Assembly (NCBI GenBank): GCA_000934665.2
Contig: JYFJ02003375.1
Coordinates: 1 to 42,749, forward strand
From: Catajapyx aquilonaris
Lineage: Eukaryota
DNA length: 42,749 nucleotides
Reading direction: 5' to 3'
This document shows, piece by piece, positions 12,901 to 42,040 of this stretch. Both the position numbers and the translations under genes were made by a program. The notes under the pieces were generated by a model that worked only from the letters and a program-made list of their open reading frames with translations, was not told the DNA's origin and ran no database searches. Positions within the stretch are counted from its first letter, which is position 1. Every line of letters starts with the position of its first letter.

Positions 12901-15267
12901 AATTTTATTCACGCCCCCCTCTCCCCATCCCATCCATTGTTGCACTTGCACAGTAAACTTCAGTAGGGCCTATACTCCCCTCCTCCTTTTGTAATAATAC
13001 CCAGATTTAATATGCCTTCGTAATTATAATTTTATTGATCATTCTTGCTTCGACAAACTAATCTGCATCTTTCGCAGATTCCGAAGTACATGTTTTGGCA
13101 CCGAAACCGTGACACGATGATGAGGGTCCCAATTGGATTGGTTCTTTTGGTGTCTGCCGGATGCCACCCTCTTCATCTGGCATTGTTGCCGTTAGCAGCA
13201 GCCATCGCAGCTGGCAACTGCGCATTCGTCCATCCCTCTGGAATAGCACCAAACACCACCAAGATGATAGCCGACATGCTGCCCAGATACCTGGACCAGG
13301 TGAGCTTTTCTGCGTCGTCGTGTTGCACCCTTCATGTAGGCCTATATATACCTTTGGTGTTGTGCAAGTTGTATTCAAAACGTTTTTTTAAATTCTTGCA
13401 ATGAAGCAACAATAACCCTCAAGTGCGTGTTTGCATGATGCATTTGGTTAATTAGCCCACGATCAGGGGAAAAACCTTTACGTTTCTCGTACACGATTCA
13501 ATTCTTGGGGTAGTTATTTTGTGATGAATGGATAATTATTATTGTTTCCAGGAGGCATATCGAGTCATACCAGGAGGAAGTGACGTGCTGACCGACCTGT
13601 TGCAACTTCCGTTTGATCACATCATGTACCAGGGACCAAGGATGACTGGTCGAGAAGTTTGTGATGCTGCTGCTCAACAAATGATTCCAACCACTCTCAT
13701 CATGCACTCAAAGAAGTATTCTCTTGTTGACCCCAACGTTGTTGTAATAATTATTGTTCATTGTTGTAAGCGTCACCTCACTCACATGTACAAATTAGCC
13801 CAGTATACATTGACTCAACGGTGGACGTCAACGTGGCAACTCGGCGACTTCTGTGGTCCAAATGCGCTGATCTGGGCCAATCCTGCCTCTCCCCGGACTA
13901 CCTGGTCTGCGATTCTTCCGTTCAGACGGACGTGATCCGTTGCGCACCGGACATCCTGAAAGAGTGGTTCGGACAAAACTGGCGAGAGTCCCCCGACATG
14001 GGACGAATCAGAAGTGACGAACACTTCACGTACGTTGCAATGATCTTCAAAGTGCTTCCCATATACTGGGAGCAGGTATATACACAGGGTGGATCAGAAG
14101 TCGGTACCTATTTTTATTTCCGAATAACTTTCCAACGAGTATACACCTACGGAAGTGAAATACACACCAATGAGTAAACTGTAGATTCTTTCTGGTTTCT
14201 TTTATCTGGTACCTGCAGAATAATTATCTATTGTTGACATACAGTATAGTTGCGTTTCTGAGTTAGCAATGCTTGGCTCAGAAGCCAAAATTGGACCGGG
14301 TGTATATAGACTAGTTTCGTTTACATTATTATATGGAGCCATAATTATTATGTAAATGAGCCCACATTCTTGACGGCAGTGAAGTGACTCTTGCAGGCGC
14401 CTGAAGAGTCTCCTCGAGCGCACCAAGGGTCAGGTGGTGGTCGGAGGTGACCTGGACGCCTCTGACAGGTGGGTGTCACCCACCATTGTTGCCAACGTGC
14501 CTGAAGACGACCCTCTGATGACCGAGGGTCCCATCATGGGGCCAGTGCTACCCATAGTGATCTGCCACAGCCACTTGGACGCCTCTAGTATCACCAAAAA
14601 TTGGTATGAAATTAACATAATCTGGGCAAATTAACCCGCATGGGGAAGTATTTAAAATGTTAGAAGTCAACAACTAGCACTACTATAGAATCCTTGCCCT
14701 GTAGTTGTGGATTCGCCATAGGTTGTATTAAATGCCGCTGGACAGATTCTACACAGTCTTTGTTGTTTCAGCGATCCGACTCCCTTGGTTGGATACCTGT
14801 TCACGACATCTAGGATGAAGCAAGTACAGTGCATGTACAACTCCAACAGCGGCATACAAAGCATGAACGACTGCATGGCCCATGTACTCAGTGAGTTATT
14901 TTACTTTCGTATACAGTATACGAAGGTTGCTGGCATCAGGCTTCTAATATTTCATGCTATTCCAGGAGAGGACATACATCTGACTGCCAACGGTTTGAAC
15001 GGATGGGGCACCATCGGAGGCAAGCACACCTTCGAGGCCCTGTCTCGCAAGAAAGGCGTCATCTCCAATCCGATAGATGCAAAGAGCGAGACTCGACGCA
15101 GCCACCGATACCCGCCATACTTCGACAGGAATCAGGACTGGGAGGCCATCTTGGACCACCACAGCATCAGGCATCATCCATCTCATCTGCTGCAGAGTGT
15201 TTGGGGAGCTGGAGTTGCTCTGGTAGCAGCAGCAGTCCTGATCGTTGGAATATCCATTGCTGTCTGA
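9947..15267 (+). CDS. ALDH3/fatty aldehyde dehydrogenase-like protein, copy 2 (499 aa, degenerate active site, C-terminal membrane anchor)
   Basis: Exons 9947-9964, 11901-12044, 12661-12753, 13078-13299, 13552-13715, 13799-14029, 14397-14603, 14772-14890, 14966-15267. Exon sizes and phases are identical to copy 1 and the frame is open. Confidence 0.9.
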
Positions 15268-16708: not shown

Positions 16709-19700
16709 CTATTCCTGGTTGGGGAACTGGAAGGTATCTTTCAGGAACTCATATCCGGCGTACTCCTTCAGGTCGATGCGACGCGACACGTTACGGGCTG
16801 CGTCCTGAGCGAAGTCTATGATCCGTCGCACGAGTGTCGGCTTCACAGTGTCGATCAGGCCTCGGGCGTTCTGGTTCAGGAAAGTCTCCGCGCCTTGCTC
16901 TGAAAATAAACGTTATAGGCATTACACACAACAAAAGGTATATTGGCAGTTCTCAAGTAAAAGGATGACGTACGAAGCACAGCGTTGTCAGGGAAGAGAT
17001 TGTTGAGCCTGATTGATATCTTTTCGTAGTCAAAGTCAGCGTCGGTGTCCACTGGCAGCACCCTGTACACTCCATCGGTGTCCTTGTCCACTGTGAACTC
17101 GCTCACACCCTTCACCAGAATATTCTCTGCAACAACATTGCACATTTATTATCTTTCTTTTTCTTCTCCTTTCATATCGAGAGCATATACCCAGTCGACC
17201 CCAGAAGGTTCCGTCTCCGTTGAGAGGCACGATGGCAAACATTGCGTCCATCTTGTACCTTCCTGACAGGAAGTACTCTGGTATAGTGGCTTCGTAAATA
17301 GCCTTGTGAGACGGATAGTCCACCCTGGAAATAAATAAGGCAAGAATCTATACATTTCCGTTGGCCATCTACGACGTCGGTTGGGGTCAAATGTGACGCG
17401 TACTTGAGCTTGGTGACCTGCAGGTCCTGGAGTCCCTTGACCCTCAGGTCGTAGAACCTGGCTCGGAGGTAGCTGTTCTCGTGGTCGTACTGGTCAATGT
17501 CGAACCGGTCAATCACCACGTTGCCCACAGGAGGGATTTCGAAATCCGGAATACCTTGTAGGAATCAAAATTAATAGTAACTAAATGTTTGCAAGTACGC
17601 AGCGTTCAATCAATTATTGCTAATTAATCCGCCGTCTAATTTTGTACAAGTTATCAGAATCCATTATTACCATTTTTATCAATTCGATCACAATATATTT
17701 TCCAAGGGGGTAATCACTCGACTGAAAAGTGTACACTGGAGGTACCAAATTAAAGGCGTACCACGGAGTAATAAAGAGTGAGGTGCCTGAGGAGTACCAG
17801 GGAGTACCACTCCCAGGTGTACACCGGAGTACCGAAGTGATTACCCCCTTGCAATTTTCAGTTCATCTGTCAATGTTTGTTCATTTTTTTGTCGGTAATG
17901 AAAACAGTCGATCCGGTTCTAGAGTCGATCTGGATCGAGTTGTAAGTATATGCAGTCCTACAGTGTAGATTAGTAATTACCATCTTCGTAATCAGGTTGC
18001 ACGTCCGAGATGAGTTTGAGCAAACACGGCTCCAGATCATCCCTGGTCGTCTTCTGACAACGCTTCACGATCTCATCTGAAATAGTAAAAGAATAAGTTG
18101 TTCAAAGCAAACATTGCATTAATTGAAATCCCAGAGAGTTACCTCAGAAATATATGCCGAATATTTTTCAATGATTAGTTAGTGAAAATGTTTAGAGTTA
18201 CTCAACGAAATGTTAACTTAAATTCACAACCAGCTATCGCCAATGTCAGCATATTCGGAATCCGTGATTTGGCGCAATAATTTTCTACTGCCTTTATTGT
18301 TGAGGTGGGTCGTGTCCAATATACAAATTAACAGCAATTTAAAATAACCTTGACCACGGCTGCGTCCTTTTACAATAATTTTGTGCTAATAATTATATGA
18401 CATGAAACGCCGCTCACATGTGTTGAGAAACTCAGTTAGCCTATTATATATATTTTTTCTGTCATTAGACATGCCGCCACACATTTTTAATGCGCGTTAC
18501 ATGCAATCTATAATTATATTCTGGACTTTACAGTCGTTACTTTTCGCAATTTCTTGAAACTTGTTCAACTTTTTATGGCTGTCATCATGACTCAAGTTGC
18601 CGGTTTTCAGGGGCAAATAACCATGAGGCTCATTGTCTATGGAAATTTTGTAGCGTCACAAACAGGTAAACAATTATTTTGAAAAACAACTCGAACAGGT
18701 TTTAATCACGTGAGAAAGCAATTACTAACTACCAAACAAAAACAAAAACAATGCTGATACTGAGAAAAATATCTCTTTTTATGGTATTCAGTTGTTACAA
18801 GTCCATACACAAAGTCATGACCTGCATAAACACATGCTGAAAGAGAACAGAAATGATGTCAGGCAGGTCAGTTTTTTACAAACATAAATTAATGGAGTTG
18901 CACAGACTCTTTTTAGAGTTTACAATGCTGCTCCTAAAATCCATTAGAGACTAGTTCATTACCTGAATAATACCTGCAAAAGGTACTAGAGAAGTGCTGG
19001 CCAAATGATTAGCTAATGAGATGCGCATAGCTAATGCGAATTATACGATTGCAAATTACTGTCACGCTTTCGATTAGGTCGTTACATGAAAAAATGTTTA
19101 AAAATTAGCAGCCAGAACTCCCATCAATAATTGCTGTAAATTAGCAGCAACATACATGGTTATTGCTGGTTGCTGAAGTGAGGCAACCAGCATATACTTG
19201 TAATAACCACCTTGAAAATTTGCACTCTCCTCTCACTTCTGCGTATTTTTACTTGCAGTAGTAGTTGCTGAATCACCCGGTATTCATGAAGCACAAGGGG
19301 GAAATGCAAAAAAAATTAGTAAAAGTAAACCCCCTCAATTGAATAAATGTTATGTAACTATTACAGTAGATGTTACTTCACATTACTCTCCAGTCGTGAT
19401 AATGAATTAGTGACCTTCAGTCCGTAATTAATCCACTCAAGCCTATATATGTATGTATTACTTAACCAATTCCGGCGCCTTACAAAACCCCTTGAGAACG
19501 GCTCTCAGCAAGAAGATAATCATATGTCTGCATGAACATGAGTAGAAATAGTTCTCATTGCCAATTAATTCATTCATTAATTGTACACTTGAACTACTCT
19601 TGTACCATCGTATGGCGTTCTTAAGCTAATTAGCTTTCATACCAAGTAGCACTTGCACAAAAGCAAATTATAAGGAGCAAATATCACATTAATTATTAGC

Positions 19701-20392
19701 TGAAGTATCGTGCCATTTGAAATCAGTGAACTATTTCTGAATCTGTAATAATTGTTAAATTAATTCACAATGAAGACCTTCGCTGAAATTAAATTACATT
19801 AAATAAAAATCAAAGTTACCGTGAGAGATTAAGATTCAAAGTAATTGTCTATATATGGCCGCAATAATTGTAGATAGATTAAAAGAATTGTCCAGTTACG
19901 TACAGGCGTTAATTTAATTTAATTTTAAATGAATTGATTGTAATAAACTCAAATAATAGTCGCTCTTCTGATCCTTGTAACGTTCAACAGGCTAATGCAT
20001 AATCTAATATTTTCTTCTATTTGAAATTAAATTATAAAGAGCAAATCGACAAAAAATCTTCAATTATATGTCACAATATGATTTTTTTTTTAAACTTCAA
20101 ATTTGTGAGACATAAATTGCTACCGGTTTCCCCGACCTTTCTTCTCATAACAATCGCAATTAAGCTCACGGTTGACCCTGAGAATCCGCGGAAGGTCCAC
20201 CAAACCGACACCGAATTTGACACTGACCACACTCTTGGTCCACATACACAACTTGGCCTCAATTAGTGTGGGTGGGTGGGTGGGCTGGAGAGGGTTTTCG
20301 ACCTTGTCGGGCAAGGTCACCGACTGACCTCTGGACATCCTGGCCTGGGCCACTACCGCCAGGCAGGCGAGCAGGACAATGCGAGGCTGCAT
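16709..20392 (-). CDS. Takeout/juvenile hormone-binding protein (JHBP) family secreted protein, gene A (262 aa)
   Basis: Exons 20392-20329 (signal peptide MQPRIVLLACLAVVAQA), 18076-17981, 17554-17404, 17324-17191, 17126-16974, 16899-16709; total 789 nt. N-terminal Cys pair (CQKTTRDDLEPC), GIPDFEIPP, G.Y...vPlnGdG, NLFPDNAVL..FLNQN motifs. Confidence 0.87.
17703..17851. mobile_element. Small MITE with CAAGGGGGTAATCACT TIRs and internal GGAGTACC repeats
   Basis: caagggggtaatcact / agtgattacccccttg termini; degenerate 8-bp flanks atattttc / caattttc; related copy at 41935-42040. Confidence 0.75.
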
Positions 20393-24099: not shown

Positions 24100-25127
24100 T
24101 GCGAAACCCTACATTTTCAACTAACTGTAAGTTACGTACCGGTATGTTAATTAATAAAGGTGACTATCACAAATTGATATTTTCTCTGTGGAAAGAGTGT
24201 GATGGGAAAACTATAAAAATGACTACTTGAATTATAAGAATTTTTGCAATTTCCGGCACTTCTTATATTCACTCTACAAATATTATGATTGACATATCAT
24301 CAATAGCACCTTTCTTGAGAACCTGGGCTGTTACAGAGTTGGGGTTTGGACCTGCTGCTTTGAGAAGTCGTTCTCATTGTTTCTACATTGCGTACTTTTA
24401 AGTTGATGCTAAAGACCATAAACTATACCTGTATAGCCCCTAAGAGCACCACGCTCGTGACTGTCACATTTCAAGGGTCTTTCTGAAGCAACAATTATTG
24501 GGTTAAGAAGTGTAAGAACAACGACAAGTGGGAGATCATTAGTCTGTTGAAAACACAGAGCAGTCAATGGGAGATTACCAGAGTTGTAAGCATTTCGCTA
24601 ATTTCAAAGATGTGTGTTGCGAACACTGCCCCGAAGTGTTCGACATAATACTAACTTGTAGTCTTACAAGATGAGGTTCTCTCTTCATCCCTGCAAAGTC
24701 TACAAACTATGTAAGAGTTAAATCAAGTTGTTAAACGACTATAAACTATATGCGTCACCATGCAGGTAAGGTGAAATAACTAGCGATGGTCAATATCAGC
24801 TGTTTCTCAGCATCTGCTCATTATTTATTTCACACATGCATATGGCATCGACGAGTTGACTTCGGCTAAAATACTGCCTGTGCATTTTTATGAAGTGACA
24901 GTTCGCATCACCTGCACTTATGAATAATAGTAGCCTACTATTGAGATGGGTATTATTCAAACAAAACCCATTCAATAGCAGTTATTTCAACCACGCAATC
25001 TCAGGCAGCAGTATCTCTTTTTTAATGGAAGGGGTGTTATTAATAACAGCTATTTTCAATCAAAGTCATTGATGTTAAACAGAAAAATAATATCTTAAAT
25101 CACGGTCGTTTATAAGTGAGGTAACAA

Positions 25128-27338
25128 TCAATCCTGGATGTTGAAGGACTTCCTGAGGTACTCCTCTCCGGTCAGCCGGGTCAGCGGGATCTTGCTGGCG
25201 AAGTAGGCCGCCTTCTCGTTGGCCACTGCAGCCAGCTGGTCGTTGATGGCCGGAAGAACCTCGGACACCAGCTCGCGGGCGTTGCCGTTGATGAAAGCTT
25301 CCGCCGCTTGCTCTGTTGCACAGAGGAAAACACAGGCTCATTAGAAATGAGAAATTAACATGGCAGACTATATAGTTAACCCCTTGCCAAAACTTGGCAA
25401 CACTGCCCCCCNCCCCCCCCAACTGTCCACATAGTACCAATAACCGATAAAAGCTGTCAAATTGACGCGGCCGTCCGGTTTGTTTTAATCCAACATGATG
25501 ACGAAAATGTGTCTATAGCAACAATGGAAGGCTTACTCAGGAGCGGATTGTCGTCGTAGAGATTGTTGAATTTGGCCGAGGCGTCCTCGAAGTCCAGGCC
25601 CAGCTTGGAGTATGGGGCGGTCAGGAAGTAGTCGTTCCCTTCCTTGCGCATGCCCATCTGGGTCGTGCCTTTGATCACAGCATTGTCTGGGGGGGGGAAA
25701 TGGTGCCGATCAGAACGATTCCACACTCTTTGAACATGTTTACTCGAATCCAACACGAATCAGTTCTATTCAACATGTGACGATAAAGATTGCCAGATTA
25801 ACAAAGAAACATAATAAGAGCAGCATGTATTTTAAAAGGGTTAAATAATGTGCATCCAGATAAACTACACTCCTGCCCACACCAGGGAGAATGTAAGAGG
25901 CGCAAACTTCTGTCGGCGCCTTTGATGTCCGAGTCTCTCTGTTTGGGGCCGTTGCCAAGGCTGGCGGCCATTTTGAAGTGTGGGGAACGCCAACGAGGTA
26001 TAAATAGGGTACTGGCAAAAATATGGTCCGCCATCTTTGATGGTTTTGGCGGCCATGGCAACTACACTGCAAGAACACGCGCGAATCAAAAATGGCGGAC
26101 CATATTTTTGCCTGTACCCTATTTATGTACCTCGTTGGCGTTGCCCCCACTTCAAAATGACCGCCAGCCTTCGCAACGCCCCAAACAGAGAGACGAGGAA
26201 TTCGAATGTTTGCGCATCTTATGTAGTACAGTATATGCTCCCTGCCCGCACTGTACTGACAAAAACAAAGAGTCACTTACTCATCTGAGCCCAGTATGTT
26301 CCTTGTCCTTGCATACCCACCAGCAGCAGCTTGGCGTCCAGCTTGTACTTTCCGCTAATGTGCATGTAGGGCACCAGCACCTCCCAATCCACCAGCTTAT
26401 TAGGGTAATCAATCCTGAAACAACAACCGCGCATTAGCACAACTGCTTGGTGATAGGTGTCTCATTTACGCCTCAATTACTAGAGTAACAGTACATTCAC
26501 ATTGTGTGTCAAAAATAATTTAAACATATCCTGGGGATATGCAACCATCAGAACGTTACTTTTCGAACATGATGTTTGCCCAAAACATTTTTTGAAATGT
26601 GCAACATGAGACTGAAATGAGTCAACTTTCTGCGACCATAATTAAAAACAATAACCTGAGTTTGGTAATCTGCAGCTCGTCCAGGCCCTTGAAGAGTGTG
26701 TTGTACAGCTCGGCGGTCAGGTAAGAGTTTTCGTCCCTATAGTCGCTGAAGCTCATGTAGTCAACGGTCACTTGAGCTCCGGGAGGAATGCCGAATTCCG
26801 GGATTCCTATAGGAATAATTTTAAAAATTAAATCTCAAACGGAAAACCTGACAAACGTCACAGGGAAATAAGGAAGATGGGAGAACCAGTATGTACACAC
26901 ATCAATAATTACCGGTGTTGCAATGTCCGTAGTGGTTATATTGTAGCATTGTTGTCAAAAGCTATTGCGATGAGTCAGTCATCGTCCCTATACTATATGA
27001 CCAGGGGTCAGTTGTTGCCAAAGGAATGTGCTACGTCACTTGAAGCTACGTCCAAGACATGTTTGTTCACGAGTTGAAGGAATGGAAACATGCAACACTG
27101 GGGAGAGTGTGGCCTTGAGAATTGGGGGCGAAGGGGGAAAGTGACCATGTGTGGCAACGCTGCACGAACGCTCCCCCACAACAGGGGTTTCAGAAGCGTT
27201 AGTCAACCATAGCAAAAGAAATAAAATTGTGAAGAAACTTGCCTTCTTCTAGGGCACTTCCTGCGCTATTGATAAGGTTCATTAGACATGGCTCCAGATC
27301 TTTCCTCTCCACCTTGCGACAGGTTTCAATGAAGTCAT
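25128..27338 (-). CDS. Takeout/JHBP family gene body B (exons 2-6 intact; no private first exon found)
   Basis: Exons 27338-27243 (GC donor), 26806-26656, 26414-26281, 25686-25537, 25312-25128. Sizes 96/151/134/150/185 match gene C. Open frame DDFIETCRKVERKDLEPC..GIPEFGIPP..NNLYDDNPLL..AFINGN..SFNIQD*. Confidence 0.85.
25883..26244. mobile_element. Fold-back MITE (P- or hAT-like termini) in intron of JHBP body B
   Basis: Arms of ~160 bp (25883-26041 and 26085-26244), termini cagggag..ctccctg, near-TSD cccacac / cccgcac. Confidence 0.8.
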
Positions 27339-27542
27339 CTGCGAACAAAAAAAGAGAGATTGTTGCATTATTCTGTGTAATCGCAAGATCTTTTTACCGC
27401 CATTTTAATTCTACCTAGTAAAAACATAAAATGGCTGCAAGAAAATGGCAATTTCAAAGGAAGGGGGGAAAAAATATAGCAAATAATTTATAGGTAAAAC
27501 TTTATTTCTGTTTCTGATGCTGCAATAAATATATGACTTTAA

Positions 27543-28071
27543 CAGCGCCTTCTGGTGTTAATCATCTTTAACATTACGATGTTTTTCGTTTGTTTTTCGC
27601 TTCCAATATGGCCGATAAATTATTTCAATCGACAACAGCGACCACTAGTGCTCCACCTCACAGTTATTGTAGACAGTAGATATTATTTTGTAACAGCGTG
27701 GATTACAAACATGGCGACTGAAATCGACAGCAGCGCCAATAATTCGGGGGAAATCTGCGATTTTTTAGTCTCGGGTTTCAAAATATGGCCGACAAATGCT
27801 ACAAAATAGCAGAGGCCTCTGGTGAGCATTATCAGGTGAAATTTCATTTCTTGTGAGTATATTACAGTACGCCCTTTTACAGAAGAGCCCCCTGGTGATA
27901 GTCTCTGTGAAATATCACGTTTCTTTACAATTCTGCTTGCAAGAAAAGATTTACAAACAATATCGCCAACTAGTGTACTGCAATTGAAGCACTGATTTTT
28001 TTTGTCGAACTTTGGCTTACACAATAATATGGCTGCCAAATCACTTTTTCTCACATTAACGCCATCTGGAC
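27543..28071 (-). promoter_or_regulatory. Array of co-oriented CTCF-like motifs interleaved with YY1/Pho-like motifs
   Basis: Plus-strand cores cagcgccttctggtg 27543, cagcgaccactagtg 27636, cagaggcctctggtg 27810, aagagccccctggtg 27883, tatcgccaactagtg 27961, taacgccatctggac 28057. AA(T/C)ATGGC motifs at ~27605, 27708, 27782, 28026. Confidence 0.6.
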
Positions 28072-28829
28072 TTATTGGCCTAAACTCAATGTTTCTTTCT
28101 TTGCCATGGCTTACAAAGACGGCCATGAGTGGCTTTATTGCAGAGATTTATTACAGGTCGCTGTGATGCATGCGCATGCTAGACGATGCACATGGCAGCT
28201 GGTTACATGAAAAACTTGTGTAACACAATCATGTAATAGAGATTATATCGTAATCTGTGGATGATAATTATGCTTGCATCATAATTATTCAACTTCATAA
28301 CAACTGTAGAAGCCTTACATAATTTTGATTGCAAATGTTGATAAATGTGATTCACGTGAGAAAACGTGCGACACCTTCCCATCAGGCACCTTATAGCAGT
28401 GTTTGATTGCTGCTAATTATTATTATCAGTGGTAGATGACTGGTAACGACTTTAATTAAATTCGAGTCAAAGCATGACAAAGGGTCTTTCTGGGAACATT
28501 GTCTCGGAAACCTAGTTGTTTATTACTCGCACTGAGGGAAGGTAGGTATACTGAGTCAAAATCGGGTAGACTCTGCGAGAATTTATTTTGTATAATAACA
28601 AAAAGGGTTGGTGTCAAAATTAATGCGCAATGATAATCATTACGTTATCGTCGGTACGACAGTAGAAATTATTTCAGTAACAGTCAACAATATTGGTGAT
28701 AATCTCTAACAACAGCGACATTATAAATTTTATTTTTAGTAACAATCATATTAGCGACTGCTTTCAGGTATCAGTCAACAGTAATTTTCAACAACTGACT
28801 AGACACGGCGGCGGTTTAATGTATCTGAC

Positions 28830-31800
28830 TTAATCATAGACATTGAAGGCCTTTCTGAGGAACTTCTCTCCGGTCAGCCTGGTGAGAGGAATCTTCCTGG
28901 AGAATCTCGTCGCCATTTCGGATCCCAGTGTTGACAATTTGTCGTTGATGACTGGCAGCACTTCGTCGATTAGTTCGCGAGCATTCTCGTTGATGAACGC
29001 GTTGGCAGCTTGCTCTACTCGGAAGGAAAAAGAAAATTATATAATAATAAAAAAATAGCAGAGATCTTTCTCATTATTCGATCCATTGTTATTGTGACTT
29101 ACGAAGGATGGCATTGTCGTTGTAGAGGTTGTTAAACTTTGCAGACGCCTCTTTGTAGTCAACTCCCAGCGTGGACTCGTGAGCTTTCAAGAAGTAATCA
29201 GACTCATGCTTCTCCAGGCCAATCCTGGTCACACCATTGAGATGAGCGTCAACTGCAACAATCCAAGCACTTAAGTCATGGATTCTGATCCAACATATCT
29301 CATTTGTTGACCAGAATCATATATCATGCAACATACTGTCCTGTAGCTAACAATAGCCACGATTGCAAAATTACGTAAATACAATTTACAAGTTCTGTTC
29401 AGCTCCATCTGGACGAACTAAACTCGACATCTTCAGTCACTGCAGTTACGACTTTATTTTTAGGACTCACTCATTTTTGCCCAGAATGTTCCGTCACCCT
29501 GAAGAGGTACAGTCAACAGTTTGGCGTCCAACTTGTACTTTCCATTGACTTGCAAGTGCGGTACCAGAAGAGACCACTCGACCAGATGAGTGTCGTAATC
29601 GACCCTGGAGGAAAATCCGAATATATGATATGATATACTCTCCAGTCTATATTATTATATTTTGTAATATAGAATTATTCCACTCTTTATATAGATTCAG
29701 AAAAGAGCTCGAGATACGTATGCCGATATTCCTGGTTTTTGGCAGGCTATGCATTACTCACTTTAGACTAGTTATTATGAGCTCGTCCAGACCCTTGATC
29801 GTCGAATCAAAAAACTCGGCATTGAAGTACGAGTTTTCGTTGTTGTAATCGGAGAATTTCATGTAATCAATGGTGATCTCGCCTGCTGCTGGGATGTCGA
29901 ATTCAGGAATGCCTAAAAAATTAATAAAACATAATTCGGTATTTGGCCCACAGCTAAAGGATACGGAAGATATCATTTAGGATGTTTCATAATAGCTCCG
30001 ACTAACTTCTATGATTATTTTTATGTGCAAGTGTCATTTTGTAGACTTACATTTTTGATGGCAAAGTAAGGACACTCTTAGTTTAAAGACTATTATATTT
30101 GTAACGAGATTGCGAAAATTCACCTCACATATAAACTGTTCCTCTAGTGGCCAGTATGTTTAAGTCATTATGAAACAACCTGTATAGCAACATTAGTGAC
30201 TTACCAACTTCCAGGGTACTTTGAGCTGAATTGATTAGATCCATGATGCAGGGCTCCACTTCCTCTCTCTCCACTGTTCGGCACGCCTCAATAAAGTCAT
30301 CTTTAAAAACAGTTACAATCCACGAAATGAGCTTTATGTCGAGCACTGCAGAGAGCACACAATGCACCATACTTTATATATATAGACTTTAGTACATTGA
30401 CCGCCAGCATGATGAAACCTTACTTTCGATATGCTGTCACAGAGTGGACGCGTGGGCTATATTTTAATCAAATCACTTACCATCCAAAACCTGTATAGTG
30501 TTGCATCACCCTGTGTTATAGTCCCCCACGAGTATTGCCTTCAAGGTTAAGTACCCCATTTGGACGTAAATCCTTTAGGTTGAAAAAACCTATGCACGTC
30601 ATTTTCAAAGTGATTAATATTAATTAGCTGGAAATGACATGTTGTTTGTCCTGTGAATTATTGAACAAACATTATTATTGCTTAAGCTGAAGCGGATGCC
30701 ATATTATACATTAGGCAGAGGTTTGGGATAAATGCTAAAACTCGTGGAATTTGGCAAATAATATTTAGCAATTTATTGTAGATTCTGTCTATATAAGTTG
30801 CACGAATTTTGTCGGCTGCCCACCTTCAGCATCTGCCCCCTATGCTCGATTTCCTGAGGTATTTCGCATCAACTCTATAAAAATTGAATATAATTTTTGC
30901 AGACTTATATAAGAGCCCTCACCTTGTATGCTATAATTTTGTTCTAGGAATCGACGGGATATATACCTTTAAAAAAAATACCAAGGATTTTTTTTTTTCT
31001 GACCAGAAAGTTCTTTGTTACCGTACACCTAATGAGTCATTGCCCAACTTTTCTTTAACATATGCTTCTTCGAACCTGAAATGGCGCCCTGGGCATCAGA
31101 CTTGCTTCGATGAATTATAATTAATTTGGTCTTTGTCAGAAGAAGAACTATATTTTGATGTTAATAACCCAGTTTCTCGCGAAAGTATGTTTTTTTGTCT
31201 AGCCTTCAGATAAAGACAGTATGAATAACTTGGTGCTAGATATAACTGACGCCAAGTATGCGAGAAACTGCAAGATATCCGCAGATATAATTACGAATAT
31301 CAGATGACTTTCGACGTAACTTAATATGACAAAAGGGAGCACTTCTGCTGAATTTGATCTTTGTGCGAAATTGAGACGAAAATTGGCAATTTTTTAAAGG
31401 ATTCTACACTCTAGACTTCTAGAGAGTCTAGACCAGTGCTTCCCAATTTCTTTCGTTGGCGACCCCAAAAAATCGTCTCGTAAAATTTGCGACCCTCTAT
31501 ATGTGCGCATTTCGATCCGCCAACATGAAAAGACAGGTAATCAGTGAAATGACCTTACCTTATGCTGGTCATGAACTCATGATTTTCAAGAAAGATAACA
31601 TCATTTTGTGAAAATAATTATTTTGTTGCCCTCCCTCGCGACCCCGAATATTATTTTCGCGAAGCACTGGTCTAGACGATTGTTACCACAATCGCTATTG
31701 AATATATTAATATTACATCCAATTGCACCTGAAATCTATATCCTAAATTATTTGCATAAATGAAACATATTACATGCAAAAAATAATGCGCACAATATTT

Positions 31801-34218
31801 ACAAGACGTTCGAGAAAAACAATGATTAGCGCGAATAAACAAAACATGCAAAGTTATTGCGACTAAGTCAGGTTAATCTTGAACATCTAAAAACAACTAA
31901 ATGTAATTAAACTCGCAAAGTACACTACAGGCAAGGCGATATCAATTATTTGGCATATTCTGCGCATATCTTGCAAGGTGTAATTAGTTAATTGCGGAGC
32001 AGCAGGAATTCGCATGCGAATCCGATTGCTAGGTTGTTTTATTATTCAAACACAGAACTTTTCAGGCTAGTACACCAATTTGCGAGATATTTCTATAATT
32101 TTTTCACATTCTTCCAAGAACTCGTCCTTGGAAGATTTCGCAATTATTTTTTGTTAATGGCGCAGAAGAGTACTGCTACACATGAAACCTGCTGGCCTCG
32201 CATGGATAGATGTTATTCTTGCCAATCAGACATCGATGTGACGTAACTTTATTTGCGCAATTATTGTTGATCATCCTGACATCCGTCATCAACTCATGCC
32301 ATCGGCAAAGGCACATGGACATTGGACAGTAGTTTCGCGTGCAGAAAAGTGCAGACGTTGACGGGGCACGGAAGCAGCCATTTAATGATGATAAGGAAGA
32401 CATTTGCGTCATGCAACATGTTTTTCGAAATCGGTGAAAAACCGGTTCTGGTTACTACTTACTAGTGTTTAATGTATATTCGTTGCTAATAGATTTATGG
32501 TCCCATTCGCGTGACGTGACGAAAAATTATTCGCGAGACATGACGTCACAATTTGTAACATTAAATGACTGACATTACTCTGCAGATTTTAGCACTCTCA
32601 CGACATTAATATGGAGGTTGATGTGACGGACATCATGACGTTTAAATATTATTGCATGTTTATATATTTTTTTAAAAATATTTCCATATTGACGTCAGGC
32701 CACAATAATTGGGCAGTCAACATGACATAACGAAACTAATTAAACAATTATCTGGCATGACGTCATATATTCATTCCAATAAATCAATACACTGTTGCTT
32801 GCTTTTAAATTTTTGTAGCAGTAGATCCTGTGTCATTTTATTCGCCAATTAAGCAGCCGTTAGTTAGAACTTAAATGCTAGCTCTTAGCTGTCAGTTAAA
32901 GAGGTTGGAGAAACCGAGCATCATTAATTTGTTCATATATTTCAATATTTCTCAACACTATATTTAACCATTGTCAGAAATGACCTTCACGTGTAGCCTA
33001 CATATAAGTTAACTATACTTTTAGTTACTCAAGGTTAACATTAATGGTTTTCCAGCTTACGTTGCTACTCAACCAGGGGAAATTAAAGGGTCAGTAATCC
33101 CCCTCCCCCTCACCCAAGACTGTAAAGGTCAAATCATGTCCAAGGCTGTTTCATATGTACAAAAAAAAAGGATGTAAGTAGTTATGTATGCAAATGTAGG
33201 CGGAAGCCTCTCAGGCATAAAACTGCATTTTTCCAGGAAACTAATTATAATTAAAAACCAGCGCAATTTAACATATTTGTGAAAAATCTCACCGTCCTCG
33301 TAAGACTCCCTTCCCGCCAGTTACGCAACCTTGAATTTTTGCGATTCGTTCAATGACCTTTTTTGCAAAGCAGGAAATCATCTCGAAACAAGCCAAAATT
33401 ACACGTTAGACATGCCAGAGTGTCCTTTTCAATAAAAAAATAATAGAATTATTGTTTGTCACCAAATTTCACAGAAGAAGACATGATATGGGAAATAAAA
33501 ATTATGTCCTTAAAACAAGTTAATAAGTTTTAAAAATTACAATAACAGACGTTTATCATAATCAATCATAATTATTATGATAAACGTCTAAAACTCATTA
33601 CCTTGTTTTAAGGACATAATTTTTATTTCCCATATTAATATCCCATATGTACTTATGCAATCCGTAATTGTTTTTCAAGAGCATGCAGGATCTCCTGATC
33701 TTTTCAACAATTATCTGCAGTTGCTTATAATTGCTGTAAAAGGCTGTCAAGTTTGCATGTCCACTTCCAAGTAAATAATGAGCAAGAATAAAACAGGATT
33801 TCGCATATGATCCGACATTTAACAATTACCTGTAAACATCTTTACATCCATACATTCAGTGGCCTACACATTCATACGTATACTTTCAATCACAGCATAT
33901 TCCCAAGATGGAGTTACCTTAGTGTAATATTAATATATTATATTTGAACGATCTTACAGTTAAATGTAGTGTAAAATATTTCAAAATTTAAACAATACTG
34001 TTTAATTGCCAGTATTTCCATTTTTGTTCCTTGCTTGCCTAACAATATATGTAATGGCATAATTAGCTCAAATTAAATTTTGGGAAAATAAATTGGACTG
34101 ATTGTGGTTCCTAATTTCTGATTGGTGTCTCACCAGCTTTGAGCAGCTTTGTCGGCTGCGCAGTGACGTTTAGGAGGAGGGTCCAGGCTGCGCAGACTGC
34201 CACTAGTAGTCTCATCAT
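28830..34218 (-). CDS. Takeout/JHBP family secreted protein, gene C (266 aa)
   Basis: Exons 34218-34134 (MMRLLVAVCAAWTLLLNVTAQP signal peptide, phase-1 donor GTGAGA), 30300-30205, 29912-29762, 29604-29471, 29252-29103, 29014-28830; total 801 nt, open frame. Minus-strand AATAAA at ~28729 and ~28582. Confidence 0.85.
31434..31669. mobile_element. hAT (Charlie/Buster-like) MITE
   Basis: Termini cagtgcttc / gaagcactg, perfect 8-bp TSD gtctagac at 31426-31433 and 31670-31677 (NTCTAGAN target), subterminal gcgaccc repeats. Confidence 0.85.
33486..33635. repeat. 150-bp AT-rich inverted repeat in intron 1 of JHBP gene C
   Basis: atatgggaaataaaaattatgtccttaaaacaag pairs with cttgttttaaggacataatttttatttcccatat; inner stem agacgtttatcataat / attatgataaacgtct. 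Confidence 0.85.
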
Positions 34219-36303
34219 GTTGACTTATTCTTCCTCTTGGTCCGATGGAGAGTTGTATTCCTCGACTTCCAATCCTGGAGTGATCTCTTCTCCTTTACTT
34301 CCTCTCCCTTTTAAGCAGCATCTCAGGGCCTTCAAGGTGATCTTCTCATGCTCCCTTCCCTCCCCCCCTCCCCCCCACCCCAGCCCGCCCCATTTGATAT
34401 TTTGCTTATTCACAAGCATTTCCCAGGCTCCACAGGCGGCAGGCAATGGACGATAAGTGCATGGATACACGTGATCTCGTGGAGGGAGAGCACATAGGTC
34501 CTTATGTAACGTGGGGAAAATATAATGTTAAAAGAAGCCAGAGCATGGAAAAACAGAGAGAAACAACTTTGCTTTTATGCTCCTTTTTTTTGCTAAGATA
34601 CCTTGCGAAATACAAATGATGAAAGAGAGTCTAATTAATTCAACTCGATTCCAACACATGAAAGACGGCCCATTACATCCCATAGACAAAAGCGCTATAG
34701 ACACCATCATCACCCATCATCATTTTCTCGAGAACTGGCTGGCGGTCAATTAGCTGCAGTCACTTTGTGTTGTATGTCCATTGCGTTTATGTCATCTGTA
34801 TGGCTTTGGGGTGACTGCACCAGTCCCGTCTGGCTTGTGGCCCTGCCAGGCACGGCACGTCGCATTGCTGATGATTTTAGTTAATTGCGAGCATAGCGAC
34901 CTTGGCCCTTATTATTATTATTATTATTATCTGAATTTGATACAATTCATACTAATAATTCCATCCATTATACTTTTCCGAACAGTGACCTACACTGTTC
35001 ATACACGTAACTTGACAAGTGATGAGTATGATGTGAGATGAAGTATATTGCATTCTCTCACCCTTAGAAACACGTAAAAGCTGGAAAGGTCATCAGTTTA
35101 TAATGACTAATTACATCTCTAGGAGTCACTCATTGCCTAGGGCAAATGCCCTCATTGCACTCTGAGACAGCGTGGTTTGATTAATGAGCGGAGTTCATGT
35201 AATTACATTCTGATTAAGTATTTTACGTACATGTATAATCAATGAAAATGATGCTGATAATTACTATGAAATTAATTTTGTGGTGTCTCATGCGTCCACA
35301 TAATGCATATAATCTGCTTGAATAGATTTAGGCAATTATTTAGCTACTTGTTTGAAATATATTTTTGCTATTTAGAAAACAAATTTATAACTTGTTCCCG
35401 AACCATCTTAACATCAAGTAAGCCAACAAGCCAACAGTAACAATATATTCCATTTGGCTAATAACACTGCCACTGTGTGTTGCCAGCCATTATAGAAGAT
35501 AATATATAATTATTCATGCGTCGTTTATGCAATGCAATCTTTACTTATGCATCAGGGTATGAATTATCTGTGGATTAAGATCTATATGACGTCTTCTCAT
35601 GTACGAAAGTCTCACAGCCTGTCATTGAAAATGCAAATGGCTCTTCACTCAGAACATTTAATATTAATGTGCGCTACGCCAATCCTCACATTCATGTTAC
35701 AAGTTCGTTGAGCCAGTTTCACATATCCCAAACCTTGAGCTGGTGAATCACATGCAAAGGTGATGGCGGTGGGAGGAGCGGGAGGAATGACTAATTCACT
35801 TCACAATCGCACTTAATCACTAACAGCAAAAAATATGCATTATATTCCTAGTGGAGGTAGGTAATACGAAGCAACAAAAAAGAAGCAATGGCTATAAACT
35901 TTACGCAACATTAGAATCCTTCATTGCAAATATCCCTTACAGCTATATCTGGCTATAAATAATGACACATCTCGACTATGGTAATCTTCTTCTTCAATAT
36001 ATCCCAGAACAAAAACCGATAGTAAATTCTGCGCAGAATTCTGAAACTAATTTTAATCCAGATCCACACCATATCTTAGCACGCTGCCATGATTTGTAAG
36101 TGAATCTTACTTCACACGTCCCTGAAAACTTCTCAGAGAAAAAGAGTTCATGCTGGTAGATTCTGGTCAAAGTCATATTTATTTTTCAAGGTGACAAAAA
36201 GCATCAAAACTAATCTCCAGTAAACTCCAGCTTATAAATAAATAGACCAGGTCATGTGTAGTAGGAGAACGCAATTTTTTTCGTCTTTCTTCGCCAAAGG
36301 ACT

Positions 36304-39300
36304 TCATCTTGCATCGAAGACAATCACTGTGGATGATGAGTCAAGGACTGTTGGTATATATGGTACATGCATTACATGCACATGCACACAAAAAAGTGCC
36401 CTTCATGGCTGCTGCACCAGTAATGGTTGCCTATTGCTAGAAAATGTGTACTGTACTTCCCACATCTGCAAAAGAAGAGCACATAAATCGCCTCGGAAGT
36501 TACCACACAAACCTTGAAAACCTTGAAAACCTGGACAACCTTAGCCTGTCATTCTGAAGTTCCGTAGAATTTCATCGCTTTGTCCTAATGCACGATGACA
36601 ATGAGCTGATCTTGCCATTTCTAACTCGACCATGACATTACTCCATTCTACTGCTGCACAATATAATTGTGTGGCCTTGAATCATAGTCTGAGAGAAAAA
36701 AATTTGCTGTGCAGAAAAGTGAACATGCATATAGGATTTGGTTTTACACAAGGTGTTAACTTGTATCTAGTATGACTAGGCATTAATAATCTGAAAATGG
36801 CATAAGAGTGTTAACGATGTTACCAAACACTTTTTATCACAGGCAATAGTCTCAAATGAGAAGTAACAATAGGATCTGCACACAAAAAGATACTCCCACA
36901 ATAAATAATAAAAACTGATGAGACGAACGAGTTCAACAATAAGCACCAACAGAAAACATACTTTGTTATCAAAATAAGCAGAAAAGGCATATTCTGTGGT
37001 TACATGCAAAGGTCAAAATAAGATCTGAACAAATATTAAGGTCAGGTGAGCCAAAAATGCACGACATATATAAAATTATGACTGGTGACTTCATCTAGTC
37101 TGCCGTGAAGCAAGTCTATATTTTTTTCGCTAGAATAACTGCAGTGAACCAGTATTTCCAGTTTGCAGCCTCACCACACATGTTTATGTGACACGAACAA
37201 GTGTCCTTCACTCGTATGAGCTCCTGTCGTATTTCAAAAAAATTCGAAATTACATTCAATACCATCAGCAGCATGCATGCACGGTACAGTACACTGAAAG
37301 TGACTTCCCAGAGAGCCATAGAGCAACTACTAGAGTGAAACCTATCTATAACATAGTCACTCCACCCTGCAGATTCATTTTACATAATCTGTGCAGGGGG
37401 TAACACAATGGCACTTGTGCCTATGCCGCATTCTCTAGAAATTGCACCAACAATGGTTGTGAAATGGTTCGACATCACTCGCACATTTTTATTCCTTGAA
37501 AGAAATATTCAAGGTGAAATACGGTATATAATAGAACCTGTAAAAACACATACTATCACCAAAAAAAAAAAACACGTAATAGACTTAGGTTGCCTAACCA
37601 TGTGCCTGATTATAAAGCTGGATAGTCATTTGAATCATTTCAAAGCCTCATACTGCACAATTTTCACGTCGACTTGTCCAGAGTATTGGCAATCCTTTCC
37701 CAATAGCTGTTATTCAATCACTTATTTTATTATTAAGGGACCGAATAATGAGAGACAGGCGAAACACTTTTGGGATTGCCTGATGCCTAAATACACGGAG
37801 TTTGTGATATGTGAGGAGCCTGGCAAATTACTGCGGCTGAAAAGCGTATTGCACTTGAGGCACTGGCTTACTCCACAATAATTGAGAAAATTCTGAAATG
37901 AATAAGATAACCTTGACATTTTAAGGAAATCGGAGTTTCAGCTAGCCGTGGCCAACAATAAAAATACGAGCATGCTGTGTCGCGGTTGGACTGACAGTGA
38001 CAGGTACATGTATCATAATTGACATGTGGTCCTCTGGCTAATGTCCTATGCAAGTCAGGAAGGAAAAGTAGCCTGTATATTCCAGCCCAGCTGAGATTCA
38101 GCAGGTAACCTGACGCAAGCCTGAACGCAAGAACAGGAGACATATAGCTGTCCGTGTGTAAAAACTGCTTTTGCTGGAAATGAGTCCACAGTGGACTTCA
38201 TTACAGACACTTTCCAACAATCTGAGCACGCGACCCATTTGGTAGCACTGGCAAGACCTGCCTGAAATCGCCCCTGAGGATCATGAGTTTCCCTCAGCGA
38301 GGGCCACAGCGAGGACAATTTTTTGCTGGTTTTCAAAATGATTTATCAAAGTTTTGTAGAGAAACGTTTTGCCAGTTCCACCTGGGCCGTCAATCAAGAA
38401 AAGGTGCCAACCGGCCCAACCCTACCAATGACAGCTTCCCCACCTCGCTGTCTCTTGCGCCAACCACAATCCTTGCTGAACACGTACCCCGTGGGAATGT
38501 CTTGATAAAGAGTGTTGCTTGCCGTGGGATCATTCGAGTTGAGGAGGAACCAAGCAGTGAGAGTGGTGTGCATGGTGCTCTCCAGGCGCAAACGCTCCTC
38601 CTCCTGGCCCTCCTCAAAGAATATGCGCTGAGCGTCTTTCAGATGCACGGCAAGCTGAAGGATTGTGTGGGACTGGTGATGCAAACGGTTTTCTTCCAAT
38701 CGCCAAGCAGCCTCCGGTGGAGTGACACATCTGGTGTCGACAAAGTGATTTATTTCGTTCAAAGAGAAGACGCCGTCATTTTCCTTCAACGCAACTCGCG
38801 CTCTGTCGTGCCCCTTAGTGAAGTACTTGCATAAGTACTTGATTGCCAAGATGGTGTGGCACATCTCAACATTGATGTGGGCTTCGAACATGAGGGTAAG
38901 GAACGGGTTGTAGGGGACGACCCAGCCATTGTTGACGTGGACTTGGTCCGTGTTATCAGTACAGTACAGTATCAGTACTTGGGGTACCCATCCCCGCTTG
39001 TGTCGGTGGACTCTTGGAAAGTTTTCGGGAAGTGCTTCTTGCACTTTCCGTTTTCCATGCACACGCAGCGAGGGTTGAGTTCGCCGCATGGTCCGTGGAT
39101 GTTATTGGTCATAATTATGGTGTAAAGGCGTGGATTGGAATTTCCGCACTGATCACACGATCAACTCCCTCGGGTGTGCGTAAATGGTACTCCTCCTGAA
39201 GCCAGAAAAGTGAATGAAGATGTGGAAGACCGCGTTTTTGAAATTCAATCACATACACAAAAGCCTGGACTTTGCCAAAAATGTTGTCTTTGGTCATAAG

Positions 39301-41523
39301 ATTCATAAACTTCTCCACTTTCAATTGAAAGACACGTGAGACGATATCTGGCCGAGCACTGGCATGCCCTGAGGATCGTGAACCAAGGCGGGCGTTGCCA
39401 AGTGGTGAACCTCACCGCTGACTTTGAGTGTTAACGCAAACTCTAATTACTATAAACAATACTTTGACCAAATGATAATAATCAGACACCAACTGAACTA
39501 AGAACACGGGTACCGTACTTTGAACAATGCTATGGAAAAATAGCAATAGAACACCAACCAAACTCTTAATACAGTGAACAATACTGTGAACAAATAACAA
39601 TTGAACACCAAACAAACAATGAAAACTTTGAACAATGCTATGGAGAAATAGAAATCGAACACCAAACAAACTCTGAATACTGTGAACAAATTACAATGGT
39701 ACAAAATCGAATGTCGGAGGATGCCAGCAGGCAAGGTACGTGGTGAAGAAGGATGGGATATATGCAGTGGTGGCCATTGCCAGCTGACCTCAATCGACCC
39801 CAAACGATACTGCGACATGCACCAACACCTTCTAAGTTCACAGCCCTCGAAGGGAATGATGTAATGGGGATCTGACTGCACGGCAAGCTGGACAAACTTC
39901 AACCGAAGTAGCATACCAGCAGGCAAGGCAGGTGGCGATTAAGAGTGTGTCTATTGCCAGTGGACATCAATACACCCCAAACCAGATTGGGACCTGTACC
40001 TTTCAGAGCCCACGTAGGGAATGATAAAATGCGCGAAGGGATCTGATCGTTCGATTCTACGTATTCGACGGCAGTCAGTTTCCGACACTACACCGTAAGA
40101 TGTGCCTCGAAGACAGTGTACTGTACTTCCCATCTGTGAAAGCACCGCATGGGTAGGCCTACAGGCGCAGTTCCAAAGTAGTCCGATCAGTATTGGTAAC
40201 GTTCGAATTTCGAACTTACATTTCCACACCAGTACATACGGCCAATTTTCAATAACCAGCAACCCGCGGCGAAGGGGGGACAGGCAGGGTGGGTGGGGAA
40301 GGGGAAAAGGTCCAGGTGACATTGACGGTGGGAGAGGCGAAAAAAAGCGACCTTCATGCGCGGAGGTCAACATGTAACTGAACAGGTCCCACCCCTGTTA
40401 CACATGCTTGGAACAGGGGCCAATCGTAGGCGTCATGGTAACAATACGTTTTGAATACGTCGCAGTAACAATGGACGGGGGCCAATAGGAAGAGGTGGTG
40501 GCAACAATATGGGGGAGGACCAATCAGAGCGCTCGGTCAAAGTCCGCAAGCATTTTAATATTATAGATGTTGCCATGAAAGAACTTAACGAGCGATCTTA
40601 TGGGATGTGTCAGGCAATATGTGTCCTGGGCTGTATCCGTATTATAGAACACATTCATTTGAGTAATAATAATTTTCACAGAGATTGTGATAATGCTGTG
40701 CTAAAGAAAACCTTGCCTTATACCGGCATACCTCGCCCTATACCAGCATTCCCGGTATAGCCACCAGATCGCGCATTTCTAAAAACTGGTCACCTCGGCT
40801 ACACCGGCATGCCGCTTTTTGTGAGGTAAAATGGTAGTTACATTAATATAGAAAAGATCACTTGCGGGATCTATTTAAGCTCACATAGTAACAGCTTTTA
40901 ATCAGGTTGCTCCTAGTAATATTGGTGGAAAAGTGGAACTCATTCCTTGTCTAGTTACAGAGATTGATCAAATATTGGGCTTCAGGGCAGGGGGGACAAT
41001 TAGCACATGTTTTAGCTCAGATTAGTAGAAGCTGAAAAGTGACACGAGTCTTATAACTTATGCTAAGAATATTAACCCTTTTTTCAGCATTATAAATACG
41101 AAACAACTGTTAAAATTAATCAATCCCCATACGGCATCCAAGCTGCTTTTGAGGTTAAAAAAAAGGATACGCCTCTTGGTCCTCTTCTTGTACATGATGC
41201 GATATCCACACTCCCTGCACCTGATGGGGTCTCTCGCTCTCATCTCATTCTCATGGTGGCATTCTTGCGGAGATAAAGGGAAAATTAGTACCCGCAAAAG
41301 GCAGCAACAAAACAAGATAAAACATTTCCTGGTTCAGACACATGAACCCAACTTTCTGAAGTTGAAGCCCCCCCTTTCTCCTGCCTTATTAACATGACCA
41401 GAATAATGAATAACCTCCGCAGATGTAGACCATGGGCGTCTTGACCTGCGCCTGCTCCTTCCCTGGGGTTGCGCCAGGGGTGGACCCTCCTCCACCGCTA
41501 GTACCAGGCACCGGCGAGTCCAT
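36304..41523 (-). CDS. POLR2K: DNA-directed RNA polymerases I, II and III subunit RPABC4 (RPB12), 74 aa
   Basis: Exons 41523-41415, 41263-41171, 36326-36304 give ..[45 protein letters not shown], the RPB12 zinc ribbon with its conserved C-terminus. Confidence 0.95.
38055..39365 (-). mobile_element. Defective Helitron Rep/helicase remnant (element ends not determined)
   Basis: [12 protein letters not shown] motif [43 protein letters not shown] (Y2 motif) and PIF1 C-terminal VFTHGQLYV. Frameshifts and stops are present and most of the helicase is missing. Confidence 0.92.
39460..39700. repeat. Degenerate tandem repeat (~108-bp period, ~54-bp subunits)
   Basis: actttgaacaatgctatgga at 39517 and 39625; recurring gaacaccaa and actgtgaacaa motifs. 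Confidence 0.8.
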
Positions 41524-41934: not shown

Positions 41935-42040
41935 AAAAAAGTGTACACTGGAGTACCAAAATTTAAGGAGTACCAAGGAGTACCAAAGAGTAAGGTACCT
42001 AAGGAGTACCTGGGAGTACCGAAGTGGTTAACCCTTTGGT
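41935..42040. mobile_element. Truncated second copy of the GGAGTACC-repeat MITE
   Basis: aaaagtgtacactggagtaccaaa..ggagtaccgaagtggttaaccctttg aligns with 17725-17851; the left TIR is absent. Confidence 0.7.

Follow-up and report, generated by a model that had tools for sequence, protein, structure and literature searches.

The Drosophila genes lola and mod(mdg4) join a common 5' part to one of many 3' cassettes, and in the calcitonin/CGRP gene (CALCA) the choice is made between alternative terminal exons and polyadenylation sites. Insect serpin genes have alternative C-terminal reactive-loop exons, as described in the part of the source covered here (PMC10513286). Tandem takeout/JHBP clusters of the bumblebee and honeybee are presented, in the sections covered, as separate genes that each have a signal peptide of their own (PMC4414376). 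The present analysis concerns a takeout/JHBP locus of Catajapyx aquilonaris, contained in a stretch of 42,749 nucleotides (nt) of contig JYFJ02003375.1 that is referred to below as the window. At this locus, RNA contigs support the splicing of one predicted signal-peptide exon (the leader) to either of two diverged takeout/JHBP bodies, named C and B. C and B probably belong to a single transcription unit that can end in either of two five-exon cassettes.

The locus resembles lola and mod(mdg4) in that a shared 5' exon is spliced to tandemly duplicated paralogous groups that each carry a stop and a 3' end of their own; the comparison with these two genes made in the original prediction is apt as architecture. 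In lola and mod(mdg4), however, the large BTB domain is shared and a small zinc-finger/FLYWCH tail varies, whereas here just the predicted signal peptide is shared and the whole mature protein, in five exons, varies, and there are two cassettes here compared with dozens there. In addition, part of mod(mdg4) works by trans-splicing, whereas the leader-B join is presumably made in cis. As in CALCA, the common 5' part would hold the signal peptide, a proximal acceptor and poly(A) site would be used or skipped, and both products would be secreted. The peptides released from the CALCA precursor are unrelated to each other, whereas the cassettes of this locus are paralogs with 60% identity and the same exon plan.

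The insect serpins, in the part of the source covered (PMC10513286), likewise represent a secreted arthropod family diversified by within-gene tandem duplication and alternative splicing, but there one terminal exon is swapped and the greater part of the protein stays common, whereas everything after the signal peptide is swapped here. Conjoined genes, as described in the sections covered of PMC2953495, are similar in that an upstream 5' exon is joined to a downstream second exon and the upstream 3' end is skipped; both parents of a conjoined gene, however, have their own promoter and first exon, and no first exon of B was found. A conjoined gene was therefore rejected as a description of this locus, for which the window and the single RNA run used here (X1) are the scope, and the leader join appears to be the normal and sole form of B. 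Like the bee clusters, the window holds tandem paralogs coding for JHBP-domain proteins, predicted to be secreted, of about 250 amino acids (aa), and its third paralog, gene A, is of that ordinary kind. Two bumblebee JHBP models are without a predicted signal peptide, and no shared-exon explanation is offered for them in the sections covered (PMC4414376). In the part covered of PMC11215311, takeout is mentioned merely in passing. The literature covered on takeout/JHBP splicing, first exons and gene structure yielded no description of a shared-leader takeout/JHBP locus, consistent with the earlier statement that no such description was known for this family. The architecture is thus known from other genes; the novelty lies in the family and in how much is exchanged, a whole five-exon body.

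Two junctions from one leader exon

The RNA data are contigs over positions 25000 to 34400 from run X1, a single public run of one study with the library type unrecorded. The run holds processed RNA, because its contigs are spliced. The original prediction had suggested a single leader exon for two alternative bodies and had named the two junctions expected in RNA, and both are present in the X1 contigs. The C form joins 34134 to 30300, skipping 3833 nt, and the B form joins 34134 to 27338, skipping 6795 nt. Both are GT..AG on the minus strand, the latter reading CT..AC on the plus strand. Altogether, 11 joints are listed, ten of which match ten predicted introns, and nine of these ten are GT..AG on the minus strand. 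The tenth intron (joint 26805/27242) has a 3-letter leeway with four placements, among which only GC..AG is a known class, and the frame is kept. The eleventh joint is on the opposite strand, inside a palindromic repeat.

The B contig (record 1) is 1663 nt long, has no differing letters and carries the five B exons spliced, its first 23 letters being those of the leader. The same number of leader letters is found on each of the two junction contigs, and the second exons of C and B open with 7 identical letters. The word size of the Logan contig graph is k=31, and the 23-letter anchors match a fork in such a graph (30 - 7 = 23). Because both anchors have this length, the contigs fit a single leader path that divides into one branch for C and one for B. 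A chimeric assembly needs a shared 30-mer, and C and B differ past the 7 letters; therefore, the B RNA already carries the 23 leader letters. The B contig is also unbroken at the leader/B exon border, indicating that the graph contains no other abundant predecessor of B. No joint into 27338 other than that from 34134 is present in the X1 contigs. Contig cover is absent from 27339-27505 and from most of the first intron of C, which is no proof by itself. Low-depth unspliced contigs at 29884-30233 and 30272-30804 span the borders of C exons 2 and 3 and indicate retained introns or pre-mRNA in X1, which probably explain why the C contigs are broken there while the B contig is whole.

The three takeout/JHBP paralogs (C, B and A) all lie on the minus strand of the window, a eukaryotic DNA with a G+C content of about 35-47%. 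The leader exon codes for a hydrophobic N-terminus, taken as a predicted signal peptide, and for a few residues at the start of the mature protein. Its 9-residue hydrophobicity maximum is 2.56, followed by small residues, and that of the A leader is 3.38. Spliced, gene C has 801 nt coding for 266 aa, and every intron is GT-AG. The exon lengths of B (96/151/134/150/185 nt) and their phases are exactly those of C exons 2 to 6, and the C leader followed by the B body likewise has 801 nt and an open frame of 266 aa. All B acceptors are AG; its first donor is GC and the others are GT. C and B end in separate stop codons (C, 28832-28830; B, 25130-25128), and separate contigs enter the 3' untranslated regions (UTRs), reaching 27506 for C and below 25000 for B. 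Gene A has a phase-1 leader (20392-20329, 64 nt) and body exons of 96/151/134/153/191 nt, coding for 262 aa. Because C and A both show a leader exon and five body exons, this would be the ancestral plan. B is the only one of the three paralogs without a leader, and tandem duplication of exons 2 to 6 without exon 1 is its likely origin. The gene models of the original prediction thus hold: C and A each have a signal-peptide exon ending in phase 1, B is an intact five-exon paralog of C that starts at a phase-1 acceptor, with matching lengths and phases and an open frame, and exon 34218-34134 joined to 27338 gives an in-frame protein as long as C, for which secretion is predicted. The coordinates are collected in Table 1.

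Table 1. Features of the takeout/JHBP locus and of the comparison paralog, in window positions
Feature	Position	Strand	Description
Leader exon common to C and B	34134..34218	-	85 nt; ATG start, phase-1 end, donor GTGAGA
Body C	28830..30300	-	Five exons, TAA end; gene model, RNA contigs and JHBP match
Gene C exons	34218-34134, 30300-30205, 29912-29762	-	85, 96 and 151 nt
Gene C exons, continued	29604-29471, 29252-29103, 29014-28830	-	134, 150 and 185 nt
C 3' UTR	27506..28829	-	At least 1324 nt, continuous with the last C exon; most of the 1.5-kb gap between C and B
Body B	25128..27338	-	Five exons, TGA end; without own start codon or signal peptide
Body B exons	27338-27243, 26806-26656, 26414-26281	-	96, 151 and 134 nt
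Body B exons, continued	25686-25537, 25312-25128	-	150 and 185 nt
B-form intron	27339..34133	-	6795 nt; contains all of body C and the C 3' UTR
GC-AG intron after first B body exon	26807..27242	-	Donor GCAAGT; used in RNA; C has GT there
Start of B 3' UTR	25000..25127	-	Position 867 of record 1 is window position 25000; about 800 nt more below 25000
Gene A, comparison paralog	16709..20392	-	Own leader, same six-exon plan

Body B as a coding sequence and the region upstream of it

Both bodies match the JHBP domain (PF06585) on exons 3, 4 and 6, collinear at profile positions 48-95, 97-140 and 192-237. The Pfam scan was made exon by exon, at a cut-off of 29.2 bits. C exons 3, 4 and 6 score 20.4, 34.3 and 31.3 bits, two of them exceeding the cut-off alone, and the corresponding B exons score 21.6, 25.1 and 19.3 bits, which is above the cut-off only when the collinear scores are summed. 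Exons 2 and 5 of C and B have no JHBP match in this exon-wise scan. In A, B and C alike, the first body exon codes for two cysteines with 11 residues between them, and two cysteines near the mature N-terminus are a takeout/JHBP trait. The atlas look-alikes of C exon 6 are JHBP clusters, mostly from Arthropoda, and are given as a lead only. No Rfam families were found in the window.

Of the 238 body residues, 143 (60%) are the same in B and C, and identity by codon position is 0.71/0.82/0.49. Over 237 codons, the proportions of nonsynonymous (pN) and synonymous (pS) differences are 0.234 and 0.659, and the corresponding divergences are dN 0.28 and dS 1.58, the latter near-saturated, giving a dN/dS of 0.18. 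G+C at third codon positions is 0.60 in C and 0.74 in B. The dN/dS of about 0.18 shows purifying selection on B, and together with the near-saturated dS and the third-position identity of 0.49 it indicates that the duplication is old and that both bodies have been kept as coding sequence. The original prediction would have been undone by a B that is unexpressed and evolving neutrally; B is in spliced RNA, and its dN/dS is the 0.18 given above. As judged from these translations, the two predicted secreted proteins of 266 aa would have no more in common than the signal peptide and a few residues at the N-terminus, with the putative ligand-binding body about 40% different. Protein searches with B exon 6 and with paralog alignments of exons 3 and 4 found no relatives, nor did two metagenome scans. 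A profile search with the exon 6 alignment against 1.84 billion representatives gave two matches, both dismissed as chance: one is an unrelated repeat protein, and the other is a 3302-aa protein matched over short stretches.

A private start of B was sought on the minus strand by scanning for an ATG followed by an open frame of 40-200 nt and a phase-1 GT/GC donor, with hydrophobicity and donor scored. To pass, a candidate needed both a hydrophobicity above 1.8 and a donor score of at least 4.5. The scan recovers the C leader (hydrophobicity 2.56, donor 6.5) and the A leader (3.38 and 7.0), which is the best-scoring candidate in its region. In the gap between C and B (28829-27339), none of the 18 candidates with an ATG and a phase-1 donor passes both thresholds, in agreement with the earlier claim that no ATG-bearing, hydrophobic, phase-1-donor exon lies between the C stop and B. 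Within the first intron of C, the sole match of the scan is a read-through into C exon 2. The unspliced in-frame extension upstream of 27338 is open for just 18 codons and contains no ATG. In addition, no relic of the C or A leader is present in the gap, where the alignment scores are at shuffle level both as DNA (168/200 and 17/200 shuffles reach the scores) and as peptide (96/100 and 27/100). The last 12-30 nt of the leader occur once in the 42.7-kb window. No Pfam family was assigned to the 147-aa open reading frame (ORF) in the gap (27683-28126) or to five other long ORFs. A private exon in 27339-28800 joined to B, on which the original prediction would have failed, is not seen; the only joint into the B acceptor is the one from the leader.

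The supposed intergenic gap is mostly C 3' UTR, because the C contig continues to 27506. This contig (record 2) runs unbroken from 29014 past the C stop, with no other letters, and ends 167 nt before the B acceptor. Nine AATAAA/ATTAAA hexamers are counted in the gap (28829-27339), which upholds the earlier placing of the C poly(A) signals there; record 2 crosses seven of the nine and halts at the first letter of the eighth. Little room is left for an independent B promoter.

These results bear on the possibility that B is a separate gene with a private promoter and leader, located outside the window or unsampled, and that the leader-B junction is a read-through by-product. In its favor, contigs lose rare or alternative forms and do not reveal starts, the view is limited to 42.7 kb, and read-through chimeras of tandem genes are common according to the part of PMC2953495 covered. 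The B contig, however, crosses the 23 letters into the leader unbroken, which argues against any other abundant predecessor, no leader is provided by the 18 gap candidates or by the first intron of C, and the gap is taken up by the C 3' UTR. A leader upstream of the C leader would need to skip yet more sequence. A separate B gene is therefore unlikely.

The motif GCCATDTT, whose core resembles a YY1/Pho-type site, occurs 18 times in the window, compared with 6.9 expected, and none of 100 shuffles reaches 18. Seven of the 18 copies fall within 635 nt (27399-28033) in the distal C 3' UTR just upstream of the B acceptor, six of these seven on the sense strand, and further sites are present at 25967 and 26089. 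Three copies lie inside a 16-nt direct repeat (27605, 27782 and 28026).

Proposed mechanism and alternative explanations

If C and B form one transcription unit, transcription would start upstream of the leader (34218-34134), and the phase-1 donor of the leader would join one of two phase-1 acceptors. Use of the proximal acceptor at 30300 would yield the C mRNA, ending in its own long 3' UTR. If the polymerase reads through the C 3' end, the distal acceptor at 27338 could be used, all of C would be lost in a 6.8-kb intron, and a B mRNA with its own stop and 3' UTR would result. For B, the leader donor would have to stay unused past the C acceptor, body and poly(A) region, a distance of 6.8 kb. 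A weaker proximal acceptor, together with C polyadenylation, may thus compete with a stronger distal acceptor. The pyrimidine fraction at positions -23 to -4 is 0.55 at the C acceptor (aag) and 0.80 at the B acceptor (cag), which agrees with a weak proximal site competing against a strong distal one. With regard to the original idea that one promoter chooses between the bodies by splicing or polyadenylation, the alternative joining stands on the contigs, and it is the single promoter and the choice that we infer. A single promoter presumably serves both forms, the leader-B join would be made in cis, and the choice may be regulated rather than a fixed mixture.

In mutually exclusive splicing of the Dscam type, a docking site near the shared donor pairs with selectors upstream of the acceptors. 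In a crude, ungapped comparison, the opening 500 nt of the intron were matched against the 500 nt preceding each acceptor, and such pairing was at shuffle level only, with a score of 25 for B against a shuffle mean of 26.3 (22/30 shuffles reach it) and 27 for C against 26.6 (17/30). A G-rich tract with runs of 5-8 G on the minus strand is present at 34340-34400, about 120-180 nt upstream of the leader ATG, in the presumed promoter.

An alternative to joining in cis is that the B body is transcribed alone without a 5' exon and gains the leader by trans-splicing, as in Drosophila mod(mdg4). The junction by itself cannot separate cis from trans, and the cluster of GCCATDTT copies before the B acceptor (7/18 in 27399-28033) could mark a regulatory or promoter-like region. 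The leader and B, however, lie on the same strand, in order and 6.8 kb apart, for which cis is the simple reading, and an independent upstream start would give cover of 27339-27505, of which the contigs show none. Trans-splicing is accordingly very improbable.

There is an equally slight chance that the leader-B RNA is real but represents splicing noise, B being a partial copy in decay with no useful protein product. Partial copies that lack a first exon are usually pseudogenes; the five exons of B, however, are open and have the lengths of those of C, all of its splice sites are used, and the dN/dS of 0.18, the dS of 1.58 and the third-position identity of 0.49 argue for an old and constrained copy. 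The least credible explanation is that the leader-B junction is an artefact and does not give the real B 5' end: template switching would find a possible switch point in the 7 letters with which both second exons start, and the evidence is one run and contigs only, but an assembly chimera requires a shared 30-mer and C and B have none beyond the 23+7 letters, the junction coincides with a canonical AG acceptor, has the correct phase and opens 266 aa with a predicted signal peptide, the contigs show no other 5' continuation of B, and B has been conserved as coding sequence for which a leader is required.

Several points count against the reading of C and B as one transcription unit with alternative terminal cassettes. 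The RNA evidence comes from one run of one study, and this run may stem from the assembly's own project. It consists of contigs and not of reads, so that transcript starts and ends and junction-read counts are absent and rare variants are dropped, and a minor private 5' exon of B could escape such data. The leader anchor on each junction contig is just 23 letters long, and another leader outside the window that shares the same final 23 or more letters would give identical junction contigs. A common start site of the leader-B and leader-C RNAs is likewise presumed. Record 2 ends on the first letter of an AATAAA (27506), and the contigs do not define the C 3' end. Finally, no relatives from other species were found in the searches described above.

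The reading as one transcription unit has consequences for annotation, regulation and evolution. B would be an intact paralog, seemingly promoterless and start-less, that is yet expressed via its neighbor's signal-peptide exon, and gene finders and family censuses would tend to omit such bodies or label them pseudogenes. Two diverged putative ligand carriers would be co-regulated under one promoter, with their ratio set after initiation by the choice of splice site or poly(A) site. In evolutionary terms, a partial tandem duplication could become alternative splicing of a whole protein body directly. A bolder proposal, which we regard as tentative and rather doubtful, is that the locus is a regulated switch, in which one promoter serves two carriers with different ligand pockets and the same secretory route, and that headless paralogs are a general, overlooked mode of growth. 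If so, the switch might follow tissue, sex, stage or time of day, and headless paralogs that use a neighbor's signal-peptide exon may drive the growth of takeout/JHBP clusters, as well as that of other secreted-protein clusters with phase-1 leaders. Headless bodies would then be routinely mis-annotated as fragments or pseudogenes.

Other elements in the window

The B intron between 26281 and 25686 contains a nested palindrome (25921-26206) whose arms measure 58 nt (90% complementary), 42 nt (95%) and 29 nt (83%). Long ORFs arise from it in both orientations (25770-26276, minus; 25850-26437, plus), and in X1 it is the site of the opposite-strand joint and of several variant contigs. The palindrome probably belongs to a transcribed repeat family. 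The first intron of C contains two elements resembling small inverted-repeat transposons (33486-33635 and 31426-31677), one with 47-nt arms (96% complementary) and the second with perfect 17-nt terminal inverted repeats 218 nt apart. Many variant low-depth X1 contigs map to the second element at 31461-31512.

An 84-nt GGTAC-rich repeat, 85% identical between its copies, is present in the gene A intron after 17981 (17725-17808) and at 41937-42020. A tandem segmental duplication (5650-8784 and 11889-15239) has a period of about 6.2-6.5 kb and blocks that are 77-98% identical, and it includes a pair of ORFs of 133 and 135 aa (7260-7661 and 13528-13935) without a Pfam family. A 231-aa ORF on the minus strand (38394-39089) has no Pfam match and is adjoined by three tandem copies of a 54-nt unit at 39517-39689.

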